This document shows positions 1-7,352 of a DNA stretch of 7,352 nt, in pieces (position 1 is the stretch's first letter; each line of letters begins with the position of its first letter). The position numbers and the translations under genes were made by a program. Origin of the DNA: a virus (lineage: Duplodnaviria; Heunggongvirae; Uroviricota; Caudoviricetes); IMG/VR virus record IMGVR_UViG_2563366829_000008; one strand, 5' to 3'. Below the pieces are notes generated by a model that saw only the letters and a program-made list of their open reading frames with translations, was not told the origin of the DNA and did not search any database.

Positions 1-176
1 CCGGTATCCCGCTCATGCTGGCGAACCCAGACACGCAGAGTCTCCGGCGTACAGCCAATCTTTGGAGCAATGGAACAAATTGTCGCCCATTGTGAGTCAT
101 ATTCGCTCTGACTTTCCAGAACCATACGGACTGCCCGTTGACGGACTTCGGGGGAAAAACGAGTATTTTTAGTCAT
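1..176 (-). CDS. IS3-family transposase OrfA, N-terminal part (partial; 3' end outside window)
   Basis: Minus-strand ATG at 176..174 preceded by AAGAGG; translation is [59 protein letters not shown], an HTH-containing OrfA N-terminus typical of IS3-family (IS629-like) transposases. Not in the ORF track because it is truncated by the window edge. Confidence 0.8.
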
Positions 177-230
177 CCTGTTTACCTCTTTCTCAGGAAG
201 TTTAGTCTCCAGGATTCCCGGGGCGGTTCA
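1..230 (-). mobile_element. Partial IS3-family insertion sequence (IS629/IS1203-like), left end; terminus at 230, element continues beyond window start
   Basis: Minus-strand read from 230 begins TGAACCGCCCCGGGAATCCTGGAGACTAAACTTCCTGAGAAAGAGGTAAACAGG ATG, matching my recollection of the IS629 left inverted repeat and leader (IS3-family 5'-TG terminus). It is followed by the orfA start. Identity to a specific IS is recalled, not searched. Confidence 0.8.
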
Positions 231-258
231 AACACACCAAATGCATCGGAGTTGATTC

Positions 259-684
259 ATGAAAATCAGGCATGAGCACATCCGCATGGCGATGAATGCC
301 TGGGCGCATCCGGACGGTGAAAAAGTTCCGGCAGCTGAAATAACCCGGGCTTATTTTGAGCTTGGTATGACGTTCCCGGAATTATATGACGACAGCCATC
401 CGGAAGCCCTGGCTCGCAATACCCAGAAAATTTTCCGCTGGGTGGAGAAAGACACTCCTGATGCGGTTAAAAAAATTCAGGCGTTGTTACCAGCGATCGA
501 AAAAGCAATGCCGCCTCTGCTGGTGGCCCGAATGCGCAGCCACAGTTCAGCTTATTTTCGGGAGCTGGTGGAGACGCGGGAACGACTGGTGAGAGACGCT
601 GATGATTTTGTCGCAGTGGCGATCGCTGGTTTCAACCAGATGAATCGTGGTGGCCCTGCAGGAAATATTGTGGCTGTGCATTGA
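259..684 (+). CDS. ydaT: YdaT-like protein (PF06254 family; reported functional analogue of lambda CII in Rac-type prophages)
   Basis: 141-aa ORF with GGAG 7 nt upstream of the ATG. N-terminus MKIRHEHI and C-terminal ...VH, length and position immediately before the replication initiator gene match my recollection of YdaT proteins. Family assignment is from memory. Confidence 0.65.
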   Translation: MKIRHEHIRMAMNAWAHPDGEKVPAAEITRAYFELGMTFPELYDDSHPEALARNTQKIFRWVEKDTPDAVKKIQALLPAIEKAMPPLLVARMRSHSSAYFRELVETRERLVRDADDFVAVAIAGFNQMNRGGPAGNIVAVH

Positions 685-755
685 CTCGCAATATTCATAC
701 CGGATCACTTCCGGCAATTTGTGAGTAAAAAGATTCGGTATCAGAAGAGGTGAGT

Positions 756-1796
756 ATGGCTAACGCCTGGCTCAGATTATGGCATGACATGCCAAATGAC
801 CCTAAGTGGCGAACAATTGCCAGGGTGTCAGGGCAGCCAATTGCAACAGTGATGGCAGTGTATATCCACCTTCTGGTGAGCGCGTCACGAAATGTCACGA
901 CATGTCACGGCGTGTCACTACGTGGTCACATTGATGTCACGACGGAAGATTTAGCAAGTGCGCTTGATGTGACGGAAGAAGTAATTGATTCAATTTTACA
1001 GGCAATGCAGGGGCGGGTACTTGATGGAGATTTAATCACCGGATGGGAAAAACGCCAGGTACTGAAAGAGGACAATGGCAACGTTTCACAAACCGCGAAA
1101 TCCCCGGCAGAGCGCAAGAGAGCGCAGCGCGAGAGGGAAAAATTACGAAAACAGAATGAGGGGTGTCACGACGAGTCACGCATATGTCACGACATGTCAC
1201 GACGAGTCACGACAGATAAAGATACAGATAAAGAATTAAACCCCACACATAACGCGCACGTGCGCGAGAGTGCTCCGACCAGTGAGTCGAGTGGTACGCC
1301 GTTGCAGGCAGCAGAACCTGCATCCCTGGATGGACTGAGCGAACCCATCGGGAAATTTCCGATGGTCGATGACTGGCATCCGTCGCCGGATTTTCGACGA
1401 CGGGCTGCGTTGTGGGGGATGGCTTTGCCGGAGCCGGAATTTACACCTGCTGAACTTGCCGCTTTCCGGGACTACTGGGCAGCGGAGGGGAAAGTTTTCA
1501 CGCAGGTTCAGTGGGAGCAGAAATTCGCCCGTCACGTAAATCACGTCAGGGCGCAGGTTAAGCCAGTCAGCAAGGGGGTAAACCATGCAGCAGCACCAGG
1601 TGGCACCGCATCACGGGCAGTTCAGGAAATTCGGGCAGCACGTGAGCAGTGGGAACGTGAAAACGGATTTATCAGCGACGGAAACGGTCTGGAAGCTGTG
1701 GGAACTCATGGGGGAGGTTTATTCGAACCGCTGGACCCAGAAGAACGGGGCCGCACCTTCGAAGCTCTGGATTGCACAGATTGGCGCGATGACTGA
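756..1796 (+). CDS. Phage replication initiator (O-like) with DnaT-like C-terminal ssDNA-binding domain; 3' end uncertain (overlaps next gene)
   Basis: ATG at 756 preceded by AGAAGAGG (the track's 750 start is a GTG two codons upstream). The C-terminal region GKFPMVDDWHPSPDFRRRAALWGMALPEPEFTPAELAAFRDYWAAEGKVFTQVQWEQKFARHV closely parallels the E. coli DnaT C-terminal region ([29 protein letters not shown]...[20 protein letters not shown], recalled). The coding sequence contains two iteron clusters, as with ori-lambda inside O. Confidence 0.75.
   Translation: MANAWLRLWHDMPNDPKWRTIARVSGQPIATVMAVYIHLLVSASRNVTTCHGVSLRGHIDVTTEDLASALDVTEEVIDSILQAMQGRVLDGDLITGWEKRQVLKEDNGNVSQTAKSPAERKRAQREREKLRKQNEGCHDESRICHDMSRRVTTDKDTDKELNPTHNAHVRESAPTSESSGTPLQAAEPASLDGLSEPIGKFPMVDDWHPSPDFRRRAALWGMALPEPEFTPAELAAFRDYWAAEGKVFTQVQWEQKFARHVNHVRAQVKPVSKGVNHAAAPGGTASRAVQEIRAAREQWERENGFISDGNGLEAVGTHGGGLFEPLDPEERGRTFEALDCTDWRDD
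884..942 (+). repeat. Iteron cluster 1: six GTCAC(G/A/T) core repeats at about 10-11 bp spacing
   Basis: GTCAC cores start at 884, 894, 904, 914, 925 and 936 (spacings 10, 10, 10, 11, 11), i.e. one per helical turn, embedded in the initiator ORF (encodes ...SASRNVTTCHGVSLRGHIDVTT...). Confidence 0.75.
1165..1240 (+). repeat. Iteron cluster 2 (five GTCACG repeats) plus adjacent AT-rich stretch; candidate phage origin of replication core
   Basis: GTCAC cores start at 1165, 1175, 1186, 1196 and 1206 (spacings 10, 11, 10, 10), immediately followed by AT-rich gacagataaagatacagataaagaattaaa (1211..1240). This is the lambda-ori layout of iterons then an AT-rich unwinding region inside the O gene. 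Confidence 0.7.
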
Positions 1797-2250
1797 GCAG
1801 CAAATCCGACAGGTCTGCCGCCAGTGCATGGACCGCTGCCGGGCGGGTGAAACATGGCCTCCGGACCTGGCTGAGTTTGTGGCGCTGATTTCAGAAAGCG
1901 GGGCCAATCCATTTGGCCTGACGGTGGATGCTGTGATGGAGGAGTACCGCCGCTGGCGTGATGAGTCCTGGCGATATGACGGAAGCGACAAATATCCGTG
2001 GCCTCAGCCTGTGCTGTACCACATCTGCCTCGAAATGCGTACCAGAGGGATTGAGCGCCAGATGACGCAGGGTGAGTTAAAACGACTTGCGGAACGGCAA
2101 CTGACGAAATGGGCAAAGCATGTTGGTAACGGGATGAGTGTTCCGCCAGTGCGACGACAACTGGAAGGGGCGAAACACCCGCAAGGGCCAACGCCAATTG
2201 AACGGCTGAAACAGGAATACGAACGCCGGAAGGCAGCTGGTTTTATTTGA
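1585..2250 (+). CDS. Lambda P-like replication protein (DnaB helicase loader)
   Basis: 221-aa ORF; ATG 1585 preceded by AAGGGGG at 7 nt. Blocks such as PPDLAEFVALI and YPWPQPVLYHICLEMRTRGIERQMTQGELKRLAERQL parallel lambda P (PGQFVAWC... and YPWKSNAHYWLVTNLYQNMRANALTDAELRRKAADEL, recalled). The first 212 nt overlap the upstream ORF out of frame, so the true start could be later (e.g. ATG 1708). Confidence 0.75.
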   Translation: MQQHQVAPHHGQFRKFGQHVSSGNVKTDLSATETVWKLWELMGEVYSNRWTQKNGAAPSKLWIAQIGAMTEQQIRQVCRQCMDRCRAGETWPPDLAEFVALISESGANPFGLTVDAVMEEYRRWRDESWRYDGSDKYPWPQPVLYHICLEMRTRGIERQMTQGELKRLAERQLTKWAKHVGNGMSVPPVRRQLEGAKHPQGPTPIERLKQEYERRKAAGFI

Positions 2251-2283
2251 ATCTGAGAAACGATTTTGTCGGAGGAAATTTTA

Positions 2284-3054
2284 ATGGAAACCGTATTTGA
2301 CGCACTGAAAGCAATGGGAAAAGCCACATCGGTAGAACTGGCCGCGCGACTTGATATCAGTCGTGAAGAGGTTCTCAACGAGCTGTGGGAACTCAAAAGA
2401 AAAGGCGTCGTTGATAAAACTGGTCACACCTGGTTTCTGGCTGGCGAAGGTGAATCCCGGGTAACCGAAGAGCGGCCAGTAAAATCTGAAGCACAGGATA
2501 TGCTGACCGGGGAGGTCGAACAAAAAGTTACCGCAGACATGATGATTGAGTTTATCGGTCAGGATGGGGCTAAAACGTGTGAGGAACTGGCGGGTAAGTT
2601 CGGTGTCAGTACTCGCAAGGTTGCTTCCACGCTGGCGGTGGTAACCGCAACGGGGCGGCTGGCACGCGTTAATCAGAACGGTAAATTTCGTTACTGCATG
2701 CCGGGCGATAATTTACCAGCAGAGCCGAAAGCCGCGCTGGTAACGGAAAGTGATGGTAAGGCCTTTCCTCAGCCAGCAGGTGCTGCGTTACCAGTCCGGG
2801 AAGCCGCAACACAGGAAGAAATTAAAACAGAAACTGTGGCGGACATTGTGCAGCCGTTGCCATCGTTTACCGAAACGCAAGCAGATGAGCTGATTTTTCC
2901 GTCCCTTCGCAGGGCAAACCTGGCGCTGCGCAGGGCGAAAAGTGATGTTCAGAAGTGGGAGCGAGTCTGCGCCGCGCTGCGGGAGCTGAACAAGCACCGG
3001 GATATTGTTCGACAGATTACTGATTCTTCCCGCCGTGTTGTATCGGAAAAGTGA
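2284..3054 (+). CDS. Hypothetical phage protein with two tandem winged-helix-like DNA-binding regions
   Basis: ATG 2284 with GGAGG 8 nt upstream (the track's 2266 start is TTG). Two similar segments ([28 protein letters not shown]... and [33 protein letters not shown]...) look like repeated HTH/winged-helix units. No confident family assignment. Confidence 0.65.
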
Positions 3055-3069
3055 TTGCCGGAGGCGCTT

Positions 3070-3495
3070 ATGGCAAAAGTATTTACACAAGAAGAGCGGG
3101 AAAAAATTAAAGGGCAGGTTGTTGAACTTGTACGTCTGAGCGGTCGCGAGACGTTGCGGCAACTGGAAGCCAAGACAGGTGCGACAAGATATCTGATGAG
3201 TGTTCTCGCCAGAGAGCTGGTTGCCAGTGGCGATGTATACAACTCTGGTTACGGGTTATTCCCGTCTGAACAGGCGCGTAAGGACTGGCAAAATGCTCGC
3301 AAAAAACTCTCAAGGGCAAAGGTGAAGAAACCTGCAGTGGTTGATCCGGACCTTATCTGGTCGTTACCAGACGGCGAAATACGCCGCTACGACAGGCGCC
3401 TGAATATAATCTGTCGCGAGTGCCGGAAGAGCGAAGCTATGCAGCGTGTACTGGCATTTTATCAAGGAAATGTTAGGTATTTTAGACGTTACTAG
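3070..3495 (+). CDS. Hypothetical phage protein (nin-region-like small basic protein)
   Basis: ATG 3070 with GGAGG 5 nt upstream, 16 nt after the preceding stop (operon-like packing). 141 aa, basic C-terminal half; no motif recognised. Confidence 0.6.
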   Translation: MAKVFTQEEREKIKGQVVELVRLSGRETLRQLEAKTGATRYLMSVLARELVASGDVYNSGYGLFPSEQARKDWQNARKKLSRAKVKKPAVVDPDLIWSLPDGEIRRYDRRLNIICRECRKSEAMQRVLAFYQGNVRYFRRY

Positions 3496-3648
3496 ATTAA
3501 AGAGCATTAGTTCAGATGTGAATTGACATTTTCATGGCGCAGGGTAGAGCCAGCGTGGTTGTCCGCTTTGCGTCAAAACCAGATATTACCAGATTTAGAC
3601 ATATATTCCCGATAGCCCTGCTCTGATGCTACACTCTGTGCTATTTTC

Positions 3649-4335
3649 ATGACCCCAATAAAAATATTTATGACTATTGCTGATTTCAAACGGCCTAAAT
3701 TGGAGCTCCCAAACGGGGCAAACAAACTACTACTGCACTCTTGCTGTGCTCCATGTTCCGGTGAAGTGATGGAGGCGCTTCAGGCCTCGGGAATCGACTA
3801 CACCATCTTTTTCTACAACCCGAACATTCATCCTCAGAAAGAGTATTTAATTCGTAAGGATGAAAATATTCGCTTTGCTGAACAACACGGCGTGCCGTTT
3901 ATCGATGCTGATTACGACACCGACAACTGGTTTGAACGTGCCAAAGGAATGGAATGGGAGCCTGAGAGGGGGATCCGTTGTACCATGTGTTTTGACATGC
4001 GTTTTGAGCGGACAGCGTTGTACGCTGCTGAAAATGGTTTCAGTGTGATCAGCAGTTCACTGGGCATTTCACGCTGGAAAAATATGCAGCAGGTTAACGA
4101 GTGTGGGCGGCGAGCTGTTGCGCATTATCCGGGTATGGTGTACTGGGATTATAACTGGCGCAAGCAGGGCGGCTCGTCCCGTATGATTGAAATCAGCAAG
4201 CGCGAAAAATTCTATCAGCAGGAATATTGTGGCTGTGTGTATTCTCTGCGCGATACCAATCTACACCGCAAATCTCAGGGACGCCCTCTTATCAAAATTG
4301 GCCAACTCCACTACGGAAAAGAAGAGAAGGAGTGA
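3649..4335 (+). CDS. queH: Epoxyqueuosine reductase QueH (DUF208 family)
   Basis: Contains the motifs I recall as QueH/DUF208 hallmarks: [37 protein letters not shown] and YCGCVYS (conserved Cys cluster). Start uncertain: ATG 3649 or ATG 3670, neither with a strong SD. Confidence 0.85.
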
Positions 4336-4367
4336 TTTTATGGATCACCTTTCTGATTGATTTCATA

Positions 4368-4396
4368 TTGGCGAGGTGACGTGAGTTAAGTAGAAT
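4368..4396 (+). promoter_or_regulatory. Candidate sigma70 promoter of the hok/mok mRNA (TTGGCG-N17-TAGAAT)
   Basis: -35 TTGGCG at 4368..4373, 17-nt spacer, -10 TAGAAT at 4391..4396. The predicted start near 4403 coincides with the 5' element (4401..4414) that is complementary to the mRNA 3' end (4778..4792), as expected for hok-family transcripts. Confidence 0.45.
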
Positions 4397-4449
4397 GGCT
4401 GCGGGTGCTTGAGGCTATCTGTCTCAGGCATGAACACTGAAAGGCAGAT

Positions 4450-4524
4450 AGAGAAAAGCCCCAGTTAACATTTCGCGTCCTGCAAGACGCTTAACATTAA
4501 TCTGAGGCCCAATCTATGTCTCAC
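4450..4524 (-). ncRNA. sok: Candidate Sok-like antisense RNA covering the mok SD and start codon (inferred)
   Basis: Inferred from hok/sok architecture. Minus-strand promoter-like TTGCCT-N17-TAACCT (plus coordinates 4559..4531) would start transcription near 4524. The antisense transcript spans the mok RBS (GAGG 4504..4507) and ATG 4516, contains the hairpin GCGTCTTGCAGGACGC, and ends in CTGGGGCTTTTCTCT. The -10 is weak; boundaries approximate. Confidence 0.3.
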
Positions 4525-4728
4525 AAATGTAGGTTAGCCTCTTACGTGCCGAAAGGCAAGGGGAAGCAGGCTATGAAGCAGCAAAAGGCGATGTTAATCG
4601 CCCTGATCGTCATCTGTTTAACCGTCATTGTGACGGCACTGGTAACGAGGAAAGACCTCTGCGAGGTACGAATCCGAACCGGCCAGACGGAGGTCGCTGT
4701 CTTCACAGCTTACGAACCTGAGGAGTAA
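4516..4728 (+). CDS. mok: Mok-like reading frame (N-terminally extended, in frame with hok; translational coupling element)
   Basis: 70-aa ORF; ATG 4516 with GAGG 8 nt upstream. It is in frame with hok and has a 19-aa basic extension (MSHKCRLASYVPKGKGKQA), the same layout as E. coli MokC (69 aa with HokC at its C-terminus, recalled). Confidence 0.55.
   Translation: MSHKCRLASYVPKGKGKQAMKQQKAMLIALIVICLTVIVTALVTRKDLCEVRIRTGQTEVAVFTAYEPEE
4573..4728 (+). CDS. hok: Hok/Gef-family type I toxin (HokD/RelF-like small membrane peptide)
   Basis: 51-aa product MKQQKAMLIALIVICLTVIVTALVTRKDLCEVRIRTGQTEVAVFTAYEPEE: a single TM helix plus the conserved CE.R..G..EVA.F.AYE motif of Hok family toxins. As far as I recall it is essentially identical to E. 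coli HokD (RelF). Confidence 0.85.
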   Translation: MKQQKAMLIALIVICLTVIVTALVTRKDLCEVRIRTGQTEVAVFTAYEPEE

Positions 4729-4797
4729 GAGACCCGGCGGGGGAGTAATCTCCCGCCACCTCTGATGTGCCAGGCATCCTCAACGCACCCGCACTTA

Positions 4798-4817
4798 ACC
4801 CGCTTCGGCGGGTTTTT
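4798..4817 (+). terminator. Rho-independent terminator after hok (ACCCGC-TTCG-GCGGGT followed by TTTTT)
   Basis: 6-bp GC-rich stem 4798..4803 / 4808..4813 with a TTCG tetraloop and a 5-T run; sits downstream of the hok stop after the fbi-like element. Confidence 0.75.
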
Positions 4818-4829
4818 GCATTAGTCTGG

Positions 4830-4858
4830 TTGACAAAAATAGAAAAATGCGAAAATAT
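4830..4858 (+). promoter_or_regulatory. Candidate promoter for the two-gene cassette (perfect -35 TTGACA; -10 ambiguous in an A-rich stretch)
   Basis: TTGACA at 4830..4835. Downstream, tgcGAAAATATG (4848..4859) offers a TG-extended GAAAAT or AAATAT -10 at 15-17 nt spacing. Lies between the hok terminator and the ATG at 4894. Confidence 0.35.
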
Positions 4859-4893
4859 GTGGTTTACGAATTCTAAAAAAAGCGAAACTTGAA

Positions 4894-5544
4894 ATGAATG
4901 AAAATCAGTTAGCTCCTTGTTGGGAATTTCAACCTTATCTTGCTGAAAACTATGTTCGCCACTTGTTGGCGGAGATCGCTAACGTACTTGAGCAGCTGTA
5001 CTATCATAAGCACGCATTAGACAGCAACTGGTCTGAAGGTGTAAGGGCTTATGATTGGGTCAGAAATCATCTTATTCAAAATGAAGATGCAATTCCTGGC
5101 CTTGAGATGATTTCCAAGGGGTTGGACTATGTAGTTGCTTTAAATAAAGTTCCGCTACAATTTACCAAAGATTGCATTAATAACCCCAAAAAGAAACATC
5201 GTCTGCGTCGAAATAAAGTAGAGTATGAGCAGCTCTCATTGTTTGGTGATGTTGAGGCTGAGCAAGATATTACATGGCGAGTCATAGCTGAGCCTTTTTT
5301 ATCCGAAGAGGGCGATGGTGAATTAGAGTCCACACTGCCTCGTTGGGAGGTAGCTCTTGTTGGATTTAATACTTATGGTGCTCAGATTAGTATAGTTTCT
5401 CATCAATCTACAGCATCGATGCCGCTTATGCCTCTTGATTATAACACACTCCCTGACGAAGCGGAGATTAATAAGGTGCCTCTTCGTCGGCGTACGAAGG
5501 ATAAAGATTTGGATGTGAGCAGTGATGGAACATCAGGTGAATAA
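4894..5544 (+). CDS. Hypothetical protein, 216 aa, no recognisable domain; first gene of AT-rich cassette (candidate toxin/effector partner)
   Basis: Long ORF in visibly AT-richer DNA than the flanking phage genes. Its stop (5542..5544) lies 20 nt inside the next gene, indicating translational coupling. Acidic C-terminal third; no catalytic motif recognised by eye. Confidence 0.75.
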   Translation: MNENQLAPCWEFQPYLAENYVRHLLAEIANVLEQLYYHKHALDSNWSEGVRAYDWVRNHLIQNEDAIPGLEMISKGLDYVVALNKVPLQFTKDCINNPKKKHRLRRNKVEYEQLSLFGDVEAEQDITWRVIAEPFLSEEGDGELESTLPRWEVALVGFNTYGAQISIVSHQSTASMPLMPLDYNTLPDEAEINKVPLRRRTKDKDLDVSSDGTSGE

Positions 5545-6628
5545 CTTCACTGAGTATCGGGGTGATAAGCTCAAACTAGCGAGAATGGCTGTTGGGCTTT
5601 CTTGTGAAGAGTTAGCCGAAAAAATTGGCAAGACAAAGCAATTCGTTAGCAAACTGGAGAAGGGGTGCAGGCCATCGGAGCAATGTCTTGAGTTAATATC
5701 TTCAGCGCTTATGATTAAGTCCAGTTTTCTTTTTACTGAACGAAAATACGCTCTGGAAAGTGATGTCTGCCATTTTCGGAGTAAGAAGTCCAGGACTCAA
5801 ACGCTGACTAATAGTGTATTGGCCAGGGCTGAGATTCTTAATATTATAATTTCTGCTGTTGAAGGTGAAATCGAATTTCCTGACGTTAACATACCGGAGC
5901 ACCCAGGGGCTGAATTACTTACTCCGAATGATATTGAGCGAGTGGCAGAAGATTGTCGCCGTGCCTGGAATTTAGGTCTTGGCCCTATATCATCAATGGT
6001 TAAATTGGCGGAGAGTTTAGGGGTAATCGTTGCGCATGTTACGGGAGTCGATGATCGTGTTGATGCTTTTACTGTTCACAATAACAGGCCTGTTATCATC
6101 AGGAACAATGTTAAAAAAAGCATATGTAGATTTCGCTCTGATTTAGGTCATGAATTAGGGCATTTAGTAATGCATGAGGGCATAACGACAGGTGATAAAC
6201 TTACGGAATCACAAGCCGATCACTTTTCGAGCGCCTTATTAGTTCCCAGGTTATCTTTCATTAAAGAATTTCCACGAATACGAGGTAAGCAATTCGACTG
6301 GAATGCTCTGGTTGAATTTAAACTTAGATGGAAAATCAGCCTTAAAATGTGTATTTATCGAGCCAGCGCATTAGGCTTATTGACCCAGGAACAGGCAAGA
6401 ACTGGCTATATGCATCTTAATTCCAGAGGGTATACGAGAGTTGAACCTGGTGATGAACTTTTGCGCCCTGAAGAACCCGGCATGCTGGCCGAGGCGATTG
6501 AAATGCTGGATGATGCAACCTGGCTAAGAATTCTTATGAAAACTGGCTTGAGCCAAGATTTAATTCGTGAGTTGTTCTCCATCAACAGACCTATTACAAA
6601 TCCAAGAAATATTTTCCAGATTGTTTGA
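5525..6628 (+). CDS. XRE-family HTH domain fused to ImmA/IrrE-family (COG2856 / M78-like) zinc metallopeptidase domain
   Basis: N-terminus LKLARMAVGLSCEELAEKIGKTKQFVSKLEKG is a classic XRE HTH. HELGH (HExxH) at 6149..6163 followed by E...ADHFSSALLVP matches the ImmA/IrrE signature. ATG 5525 (the track's 5522 is GTG). Confidence 0.85.
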   Translation: MEHQVNNFTEYRGDKLKLARMAVGLSCEELAEKIGKTKQFVSKLEKGCRPSEQCLELISSALMIKSSFLFTERKYALESDVCHFRSKKSRTQTLTNSVLARAEILNIIISAVEGEIEFPDVNIPEHPGAELLTPNDIERVAEDCRRAWNLGLGPISSMVKLAESLGVIVAHVTGVDDRVDAFTVHNNRPVIIRNNVKKSICRFRSDLGHELGHLVMHEGITTGDKLTESQADHFSSALLVPRLSFIKEFPRIRGKQFDWNALVEFKLRWKISLKMCIYRASALGLLTQEQARTGYMHLNSRGYTRVEPGDELLRPEEPGMLAEAIEMLDDATWLRILMKTGLSQDLIRELFSINRPITNPRNIFQIV

Positions 6629-6632
6629 GTAT

Positions 6633-6654
6633 ACCCGCTTCGGCGGGTTTTTTG
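6633..6654 (+). terminator. Rho-independent terminator after cassette (same hairpin as 4798..4817, followed by a T-run)
   Basis: ACCCGC-TTCG-GCGGGT stem-loop 6633..6648 followed by TTTTTT; 5 nt after the stop codon at 6626..6628. Confidence 0.75.
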
Positions 6655-6737
6655 TTTTTATTTTCAACGTGTTTGAAGTTTTGGACGGTGCCAGAATAGA
6701 ATCAAAAATACTTAAGTAGCGCGCAGGGAGAAGAGGG

Positions 6738-6959
6738 ATGGACCCCGAACAGGGGGAGTGCTATTTATCTGGAAGGATTCTGTTGATGAAAATCGAAGAA
6801 TTACGTGAAATTTTTAGTGAAGATGGCCTCTATGCTGTGCGCGTTGAGAATGGGGGTATTACCTACACAGCGTTAATTCCTGATGATCATGTAGTGTTAT
6901 CTGTTGAGGCATTCATTGAATACTTGGAAAGACTCGGTTTCAAGGTAGTTCGGGAATAA
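6738..6959 (+). CDS. Small hypothetical prophage protein (alternative start ATG 6786)
   Basis: ATG 6738 has GGGAG 7 nt upstream; ATG 6786 has GGAAGGA 8 nt upstream and begins the AT-richer part (MKIEELREIF...). No family recognised. Confidence 0.5.
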   Translation: MDPEQGECYLSGRILLMKIEELREIFSEDGLYAVRVENGGITYTALIPDDHVVLSVEAFIEYLERLGFKVVRE

Positions 6960-7018
6960 GTTATAATACGTGAGCCAGCCTGAACAACTGGCAACCTGCA
7001 GCGCCATTGGAGATGACA

Positions 7019-7291
7019 ATGGCGCATAATTTCAAATTTCGCAATTCTGATTCTGCCTTTGCCAGCAGGCACGGGTGGCGTTCTCACGCATTCAAATATG
7101 ACTGGTATCAGCACGATCCCTGTACTGAAGAACAGGCCGAATGGCTGATTCATAACTACCGCAGACGTGGATATGAGTTTAGGAAAGCCCTCACCCTCGA
7201 TTATCGTCACTGGATAATCTACGTCAGACTCCCTTATTCCGAACGCCCACCGCGTCCGTCCCGCACATTCCAGCAACGCATCTGGAGGTAA
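7019..7291 (+). CDS. Small hypothetical prophage protein (about 90 aa)
   Basis: ATG 7019 with GGAG 6 nt upstream (the track's 7007 start is an upstream in-frame ATG). Sequence looks like a genuine protein (...EEQAEWLIHNYRRRGYEFRKALTLDYRHW...). The overlapping minus-strand ORF 6887..7276 looks less protein-like. Confidence 0.5.
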   Translation: MAHNFKFRNSDSAFASRHGWRSHAFKYDWYQHDPCTEEQAEWLIHNYRRRGYEFRKALTLDYRHWIIYVRLPYSERPPRPSRTFQQRIWR

Positions 7292-7292
7292 C

Positions 7293-7352
7293 GTGCGGGT
7301 ATTACTTCGACCTGTTCTGGTACCGGAACTCGGGCTGGTGATCGTTAAGCCG
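7293..7352 (+). CDS. Possible start of a downstream gene (partial, runs off window)
   Basis: GTG at 7293, 4 nt after GGAGG (7284..7288) and 1 nt after the previous stop; the frame stays open to the window end (VRVLLRPVLVPELGLVIVKP). Too short to assess. Confidence 0.2.
   Translation, partial: MRVLLRPVLVPELGLVIVKP

Follow-up and report, generated by a model that had tools for sequence, protein, structure and literature searches.

An IS629 element of the IS3 family has inserted itself at codon 78 of ydaS, the cro-like gene of a lambdoid prophage integrated at ompW in Escherichia coli MS 196-1. It duplicated three base pairs of its target, cut ydaS short, abolished the overlap of this gene with ydaT and now parts the pR-ydaS segment from the ydaT-O-P block by 1310 bp. 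Considering the event as a whole, we regard it as very probable that the displaced block is subject to the polarity of the element and that the insertion marks a step in the decay of the prophage.

The window, by which we mean the whole stretch of 7,352 nucleotides that was analysed, is 100% identical over positions 1-7352 to the reverse strand of the MS 196-1 chromosome (NZ_CP146681.1). Features beyond it are given in the coordinates of the surrounding MS 196-1 locus (L001, in which the coordinate equals that of the window plus 9000). Strain 118UI (L002) served as the empty-site reference and E. coli SY033 (NZ_CM185152.1) supplied a further locus (L003), and the ends of the prophages were compared between positions 2818000-2856500 of the MS 196-1 record (L004) and the SY033 counterpart (L006).

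The terminus of the element at window position 230 is exact: hundreds of IS-free genomes begin their homology with the window at base 231, and the ATG of ydaT at position 259 follows 28 bp past the IS end, just as the earlier note had described for an IS3-family element. Its expectation that a cro-like ydaS directly precedes ydaT in related prophages was borne out by the uninterrupted genomes, in which the 28 bp before ydaT are the coding sequence of the ydaS tail. In 118UI the intact ydaS (L002 8770-9045) codes for 91 aa and overlaps the start of ydaT by 17 nt. The empty site of this strain reads ...GGATTCAAGGCT-AAC-ACACCAAATG..., with AAC present once (GGCT-AAC-ACACC), and the occupied site of MS 196-1 reads ...GGATTCAAGGCT-AAC-[IS629]-AAC-ACACCAAATGCATCGGAGTTGATTCATG...; the target-site duplication that the earlier note proposed to seek at the other IS end is thus in place there. 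The base-by-base comparison of the two sites, together with the perfect AAC duplication, establishes that the MS 196-1 event was a simple transposition of IS629 with a 3-bp duplication, in which nothing was deleted or replaced.

These observations alter the picture drawn from the window alone. The IS had been taken to stand where the cro-like gene and the operators would be, and to have replaced them; instead, the insertion is clean when set against the empty site of 118UI, and the cI-like gene, the pR-like promoter and ydaS codons 1-78 lie directly past the far IS end. The divergent control region between the cI-like gene and ydaS measures 107 bp and contains the strongest promoter-like site of the area. 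Of the claim that the replication operon was severed from its immunity region, the distance stands, as ydaT-O-P is now 1310 bp away from pR, but the immunity region itself is still present. Likewise, the possibility that the IS sits in a neutral intergenic site, raised for the case that relatives carry the same 28 bp behind an uninterrupted upstream gene, holds in its premise, as relatives do carry them there, but not in its substance, as these bases are the coding tail of ydaS.

Table 1. Features of the IS629 insertion and its surroundings, in window coordinates or, beyond the window, in those of the MS 196-1 locus (L001)
Feature	Position	Strand	Basis or remark
Left (IRL) part of the complete 1310-bp IS629	window 1-230	-	full element is L001 7921-9230
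Start codon of orfA	window 176-174	-	reads leftward, leaving the window
5' leader and IRL of IS629	window 177-230	-	sequence reading
IRL, 25-nt terminal inverted repeat, TCTCCAGGATTCCCGGGGCGGTTCA on the + strand	window 206-230		pairs with L001 7921-7945, 92% complementarity
Target-site duplication AAC, right copy, ydaS codon 78 (Asn)	window 231-233		left copy at L001 7918-7920, outside the window
Orphaned 3' end of ydaS: duplicated Asn78, codons 79-91 (TPNASELIHENQA), stop at 273-275	window 231-275	+	intact ydaS in 118UI (L002)
GGAG Shine-Dalgarno sequence of ydaT, 7 nt ahead of the ATG, kept	window 248-251	+	sequence reading
OM homologue TTGATTCATGAAAATCAG, TTGATT-N6-AATCAA with 1 mismatch	window 252-269		alignment with the O157 CP-933P-type site
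ydaT, 141 aa	window 259-684	+	Pfam YdaT_toxin PF06254, 1e-9
O-like replication initiator with DnaT-like domain	window 756-1796	+	annotation and Pfam
Replication protein P homologue, last gene of the ydaT-O-P block	window 1789-2250	+	annotation and Pfam
cI-like repressor gene, 153 aa, helix-turn-helix, intact	L001 7118-7579	opposite to ydaS	
pR-like promoter TTGATC-17-TAATAT	L001 7628-7656	toward ydaS	predicted by weight-matrix scan
ydaS codons 1-78, intact up to the IS	L001 7687-7920	+	

The first three bases of IS629, TGA, fall in frame after codon 78 and provide ydaS with a new stop. The YdaS protein of MS 196-1 accordingly comprises residues 1-78 with no foreign residues and has lost 13 residues (TPNASELIHENQA); the annotation of a 78-aa 'YdaS family protein' in this genome agrees with the truncation by TGA. 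In the 91-aa and the 78-aa forms alike, Pfam HTH_3 and YdaS match residues 3-66, so that the helix-turn-helix domain is kept, and residues 1-72 can be aligned with a solved Cro protein. For annotation, this means that the 78-aa entry describes a protein of 91 aa shortened by the IS, and that orphaned coding sequence, not a spacer, fills the 28 bp upstream of ydaT.

Two further observations were made around this junction. A 45-codon ORF with a TTG start (window 138-275, + strand) crosses from the IS to the orphaned ydaS frame and ends at the old ydaS stop over ydaT; if translated, it could partly restore translational coupling to ydaT. In the 3' part of ydaS, 9 bp to the left of the IS, lies an inverted repeat, GAATCCAA-N15-TTGGATTC (L001 7881-7911), whose RNA fold has an energy of -12.4 kcal/mol (z = -2.8 against shuffles); it might serve as a binding site, or its structure might sway the choice of target.

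The element is IS629, as each of the defining features that we tested is present. IS3-family elements measure about 1.2-1.5 kb and have imperfect repeats ending in 5'-TG...CA-3'; the MS 196-1 element has 1310 bp and imperfect inverted repeats, TGAACC...GGTTCA, with terminal TG...CA. Its 108-aa orfA product matches the helix-turn-helix domain HTH_Tnp_1 of Pfam (7e-13), its 296-aa orfB product matches HTH_21 and the DDE domain rve (rve 8e-28), and the RefSeq annotation gives a programmed frameshift with a pseudoknot, in keeping with the -1 frameshifting that fuses the two frames in this family. The AAC on both sides agrees with the 3-4 bp target-site duplication of the family. Over all 1310 bp, the element is 99.5% identical to those annotated by depositors as 'IS3 family IS629' in Stx phage records. 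The isoform level of an IS is usually set at DNA identities of at least 95%. Other genomes hold copies that are 100% identical to that of MS 196-1, and thousands of sites annotated as IS3-family transposase across E. coli genomes match window 1-230. The 1310-bp length, the 25-nt repeats, the orfA/orfB frameshift and the 3-bp duplication are shared with IS629 (= IS1203v) of E. coli O157:H7 and Shigella, from which the element is in no way different, so that what is unusual is the insertion site only. Its location in a prophage is like that of most IS629 copies (PMC3271280): in O157:H7, prophages hold 62% of them, and a sequence-specific hot spot is not known for the element (PMC3271280). As orfA starts on the minus strand at the position given in Table 1, the end at window 230 is the IRL; it is this end that faces ydaT, with the transposase genes on the minus strand directed away from it.

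The consequences of the insertion depend on what lies beside it. On sequence grounds ydaT is a real gene: its product matches PDB 3c4r (E 3e-91) and 8bt1 (E 4e-79) and shares 90% identity with the YdaT of an O157:H7 prophage. By analogy, it is the functional counterpart of lambda CII, and ydaT homologues in isolated phages carry the annotation cII activator. YdaT is no toxin. In the O157:H7 prophage CP-933P, it plays the part of lambda CII, and YdaS that of Cro; the leftward promoter PRE933P, situated between ydaS and ydaT, is activated by YdaT (PMC8630535). YdaT binds a high-affinity inverted repeat, OM (TTGATT-N6-AATCAA), and two weak flanking sites, with a footprint of about 95 nt over the end of ydaS and the start of ydaT (PMC9986795). 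In CP-933P the operator was located with DNase I footprints and ITC measurements (PMC9986795), and the published accounts can be read in two ways, with OM lying near the -35 or covering the start of transcription (PMC8630535, PMC9986795); the IS in MS 196-1 may accordingly interrupt a PRE core promoter or lie downstream of it.

The MS 196-1 prophage has the same order of genes as CP-933P, in which PaaR2, YdaS and YdaT act as CI, Cro and CII with OL-OM-OR, namely a cI-like repressor, a divergent pR, ydaS and ydaT, and an OM inverted repeat at the same place over the ydaT start. It differs from CP-933P in having another repressor/cro-like allele, in lacking the paaA2-parE2 toxin-antitoxin pair, in the single mismatch of its OM and in a low-affinity flank that is not conserved and is split by the IS. 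The OM homologue spans the ydaT ATG, with the IS end 21 bp to its left, and is called from its position and homology, matches with at most 2 mismatches being no commoner than chance in the 19.8-kb locus. On the IS side, the weak site of CP-933P extends from -34 to -9 relative to OM by the published oligonucleotides; the IS entered at about -21 to -18, within the corresponding stretch, whose sequence is not conserved in the MS 196-1 prophage. The PRE reporter fragment of CP-933P starts 18 bp to the right of OM, equivalent to window 287; hence, a PRE-type transcript would start at or to the left of this point and then cross the insertion site leftward. Our weight-matrix scan recognised no PRE-like promoter in the MS 196-1 prophage; low scores are to be expected in such scans for activator-dependent promoters.

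The repressor/cro-like module of this prophage shares 98% identity with its dicA/dicC-like counterpart in phage Rac-SA53. In 118UI, a switch of modules occurs at L002 9019-9052 (equivalent to window 249-282), from the Rac-SA53 repressor/cro type (98%) to a ydaT module shared with several vB_Eco phages (91-93%), so that the mosaic joint falls just where the OM operator and the start of ydaT lie. Within the O-like gene we observed two clusters of 10-bp-phased (A/G)TGTCACG repeats (window 882-931 and 1164-1223), 272 bp apart, and a tandem ACAGATAAAGA x2 after the second cluster (window 1212-1234). The two clusters are probably origin iterons, in a layout that is unusual for their separation.

The ribosome-binding site of ydaT and all sequence downstream of it were left untouched by the IS. 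Transcripts from pR would have to cross 1.3 kb of untranslated IS RNA, antisense to the transposase, in which the longest plus-strand ORF has 106 aa, and the 17-nt ydaS/ydaT overlap that permitted translational coupling would no longer serve. Rho-dependent termination and IS polarity would then sharply lower the expression of ydaT-O-P after derepression, which in turn would weaken lytic replication and the CII-type feedback. In the other direction, a PRE-type transcript, if it exists, would start at or near OM, enter IS629 through its IRL in the sense of the transposase, and meet 1.3 kb of the element ahead of the repressor gene; the insertion also falls at the place equivalent to the low-affinity site beside OM. 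Hence, from the long untranslated RNA and the lost overlap, we posit a reduction of ydaT-O-P; polarity on this block and a loss of function in MS 196-1 are likely, going by what is generally known of IS polarity.

The position of IS629 in Stx prophages is known to alter prophage behaviour (PMC10810198). As in the Stx prophages phiPA2 and phiPA8, where position decides which gene is disrupted and what follows for induction, the same IS here occupies the early/regulatory part of a lambdoid prophage (PMC10810198). In phiPA2/phiPA8, however, a methyltransferase gene was disrupted and a phenotype measured, whereas in MS 196-1 the cro-like tail and the cro-cII junction are affected, as read from the sequence.

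It might be countered that the insertion is functionally neutral, with pR transcripts passing through the IS, the ribosome-binding site of ydaT sufficing for its translation, the shortened YdaS still at work and the prophage unchanged. Our search for an intrinsic terminator on the plus strand within IS629 returned a single weak hairpin, in the IRR (L001 7930-7942) and at chance level; some read-through from pR is therefore possible. Moreover, the ydaT ribosome-binding site, the OM site and the DNA-binding domain of YdaS are intact, and a Q homologue is annotated in the prophage, antitermination functions being often present in lambdoid phages. Nevertheless, 1.3 kb of untranslated RNA within an operon usually provokes Rho-dependent polarity, and the 17-nt overlap of ydaS with ydaT is gone. 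Further, the IS is found here in only 2 genomes as against about 630 carriers of the uninterrupted border, so that tolerance of such an insertion in active phages is not indicated. Nor does any isolated phage with a match to the ydaT module show an annotated IS at the junction. On balance we hold neutrality to be improbable and prefer polarity.

The earlier note had also suggested that an outward promoter of the IS drives ydaT-O-P, which would place the block beyond the control of the phage repressor. A candidate, TTGACG-17-GAGTAT, does occur on the plus strand at window 138-166, 93 nt ahead of ydaT, whose Shine-Dalgarno sequence is intact, and IS3-family elements are able to form hybrid promoters (PMC9330008). 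However, in this family the outward -35 for junction or hybrid promoters lies in the IRR, and the IRL has an inward -10 (PMC9330008); here it is the IRL, not the IRR, that adjoins ydaT. With a weight matrix built on approximate sigma-70 frequencies, the candidate scores 8.3, as against 11.35 for the pR-like site, and it was equalled or beaten by 63 of 300 shuffles. A consensus promoter scan of L001 7500-9800 gave no plus-strand promoter, though the same scan missed the pR-like site too; our literature search found nothing specific reported on an outward promoter of IS629. Hence, we consider the suggestion very unlikely to be right and retain the polar insertion as the account of MS 196-1. Nor was a hybrid promoter directed out of the IRR toward the repressor gene present at the junction among the top minus-strand sites.

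The ydaT-O-P block is present in about 658 of 5426 complete E. coli genomes, and approximately 630 of the 5426 have an uninterrupted ydaS/ydaT border of this type, in which ydaS overlaps ydaT and is followed by O and P. The junction of IS629 with ydaT, searched with a 200-bp query at full coverage, was recovered from 2 of the 5426, MS 196-1 and SY033, and a synthetic query for the junction in the opposite orientation matched none of the complete E. coli genomes. As just two genomes have the junction and about 21 places in MS 196-1 match this IS, the MS 196-1 insertion is a rare and recent event at the level of the strain, which is rich in IS629.

In SY033, the element (L003 1921-3230) has the same orientation, and its IRL adjoins CACCAAATG, 4 bp closer to ydaT and 24 bp before it, a junction consistent with CAC as the target instead of AAC. 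Its IRR adjoins the middle of a hypothetical gene, with no target duplication, and the strain is without 2195 bp equal to L001 5726-7920, which contain ydfA/B/C, the cI-like gene, pR and ydaS. The IS copies of the two strains differ by 1 nt and their flanks are near-identical, with a 16-SNP patch in the O gene, and at their right ends the two prophages have unlike chromosomal neighbours. Taken together, the 4-bp shift of the junction, the 1-nt difference of the IS copies, the 16-SNP patch in O and the unlike right ends lead us to favour two independent insertions over one ancestral insertion, so far as can be judged from the sequences. Deletions adjacent to IS629 that leave the IS itself intact have been documented (PMC9330008), and SY033 is like these in having an intact IS629 beside a 2.2-kb deletion on its IRR side with no target duplication; they do not apply to MS 196-1. 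The weakest reading of MS 196-1 follows the picture of the earlier note: a deletion associated with the insertion would have removed the cro-like gene together with pR and the operators and cut ydaT-O-P off from immunity control. This reading can point to just such an architecture in SY033 and to documented IS629-adjacent deletions that spare the IS (PMC9330008), but with the whole immunity region intact directly beyond the IS and with a perfect 3-bp AAC duplication, the signature of simple transposition, it is hardly credible, and we rejected it.

With 4 bp between them, the two IS629 insertions may reflect a local preference in the choice of target. Their proximity and shared orientation also lead to a more far-reaching proposal, in which the ydaS/ydaT border with its CII-type operator/PRE is a preferred target of IS629, and in which the orientation, by YdaT-driven read-in through the IRL in the transposase sense, couples transposase expression, and with it transposition or an adjacent deletion like that of SY033, to the derepression of the prophage; we offer this as a long shot.

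Beyond the insertion, the MS 196-1 prophage has further signs of decay that make the earlier note's view of a cryptic or defective prophage plausible. Six of its genes are affected in the annotation: exonuclease and lom contain internal stops, and frameshifts are marked in the genes for capsid, decoration, portal and large terminase, although these frameshifts of structural genes could be assembly errors. The prophage starts at ompW and ends beside btsS, whereas its SY033 counterpart ends at an ompW remnant next to yciE; the unlike right end in MS 196-1 suggests a large rearrangement, possibly by recombination with a second lambdoid prophage, which, if true, would block normal excision. Judged from these sequence features, the label 'defective prophage' is plausible for MS 196-1, and the insertion, taken with the disrupted structural genes and the rearranged right end, would bring the prophage a step further in its decay.

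The remainder of the window holds other cargo. A full-length gene for the epoxyqueuosine reductase QueH (window 3649-4335, +; Pfam E 1e-65) is carried by the prophage, as is a hok/sok-type toxin-antitoxin locus (window 4403-4578 and 4516-4728, both +; Rfam sok 120.5 bits), in which hokD is annotated at 4573-4728. Further along lies a 216-aa ORF without a Pfam match (window 4894-5544, +), which overlaps the start of the next ORF (window 5522-6628, +), coding for a 368-aa protein with an N-terminal helix-turn-helix and a Peptidase_M78 (ImmA/IrrE-like) domain. Going by its domains and its place in the late-early region, this pair could be a regulatory or defence-type module.

A known element has thus acted in a known manner at a rare site, and the event is ordinary biology of an already known kind. 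MS 196-1 provides one well-resolved case of IS629 eroding lambdoid prophages, the wider significance of which is small, and the sister strain SY033 displays a follow-up step, with the whole immunity region deleted beside the IS. The IS stands 21 bp away from a sequence homologous to the YdaT operator that experiments have defined, and a PRE-type transcript would run into the element; by virtue of this position, MS 196-1, SY033 and the empty-site strains constitute a natural allelic series for a CII-like circuit.
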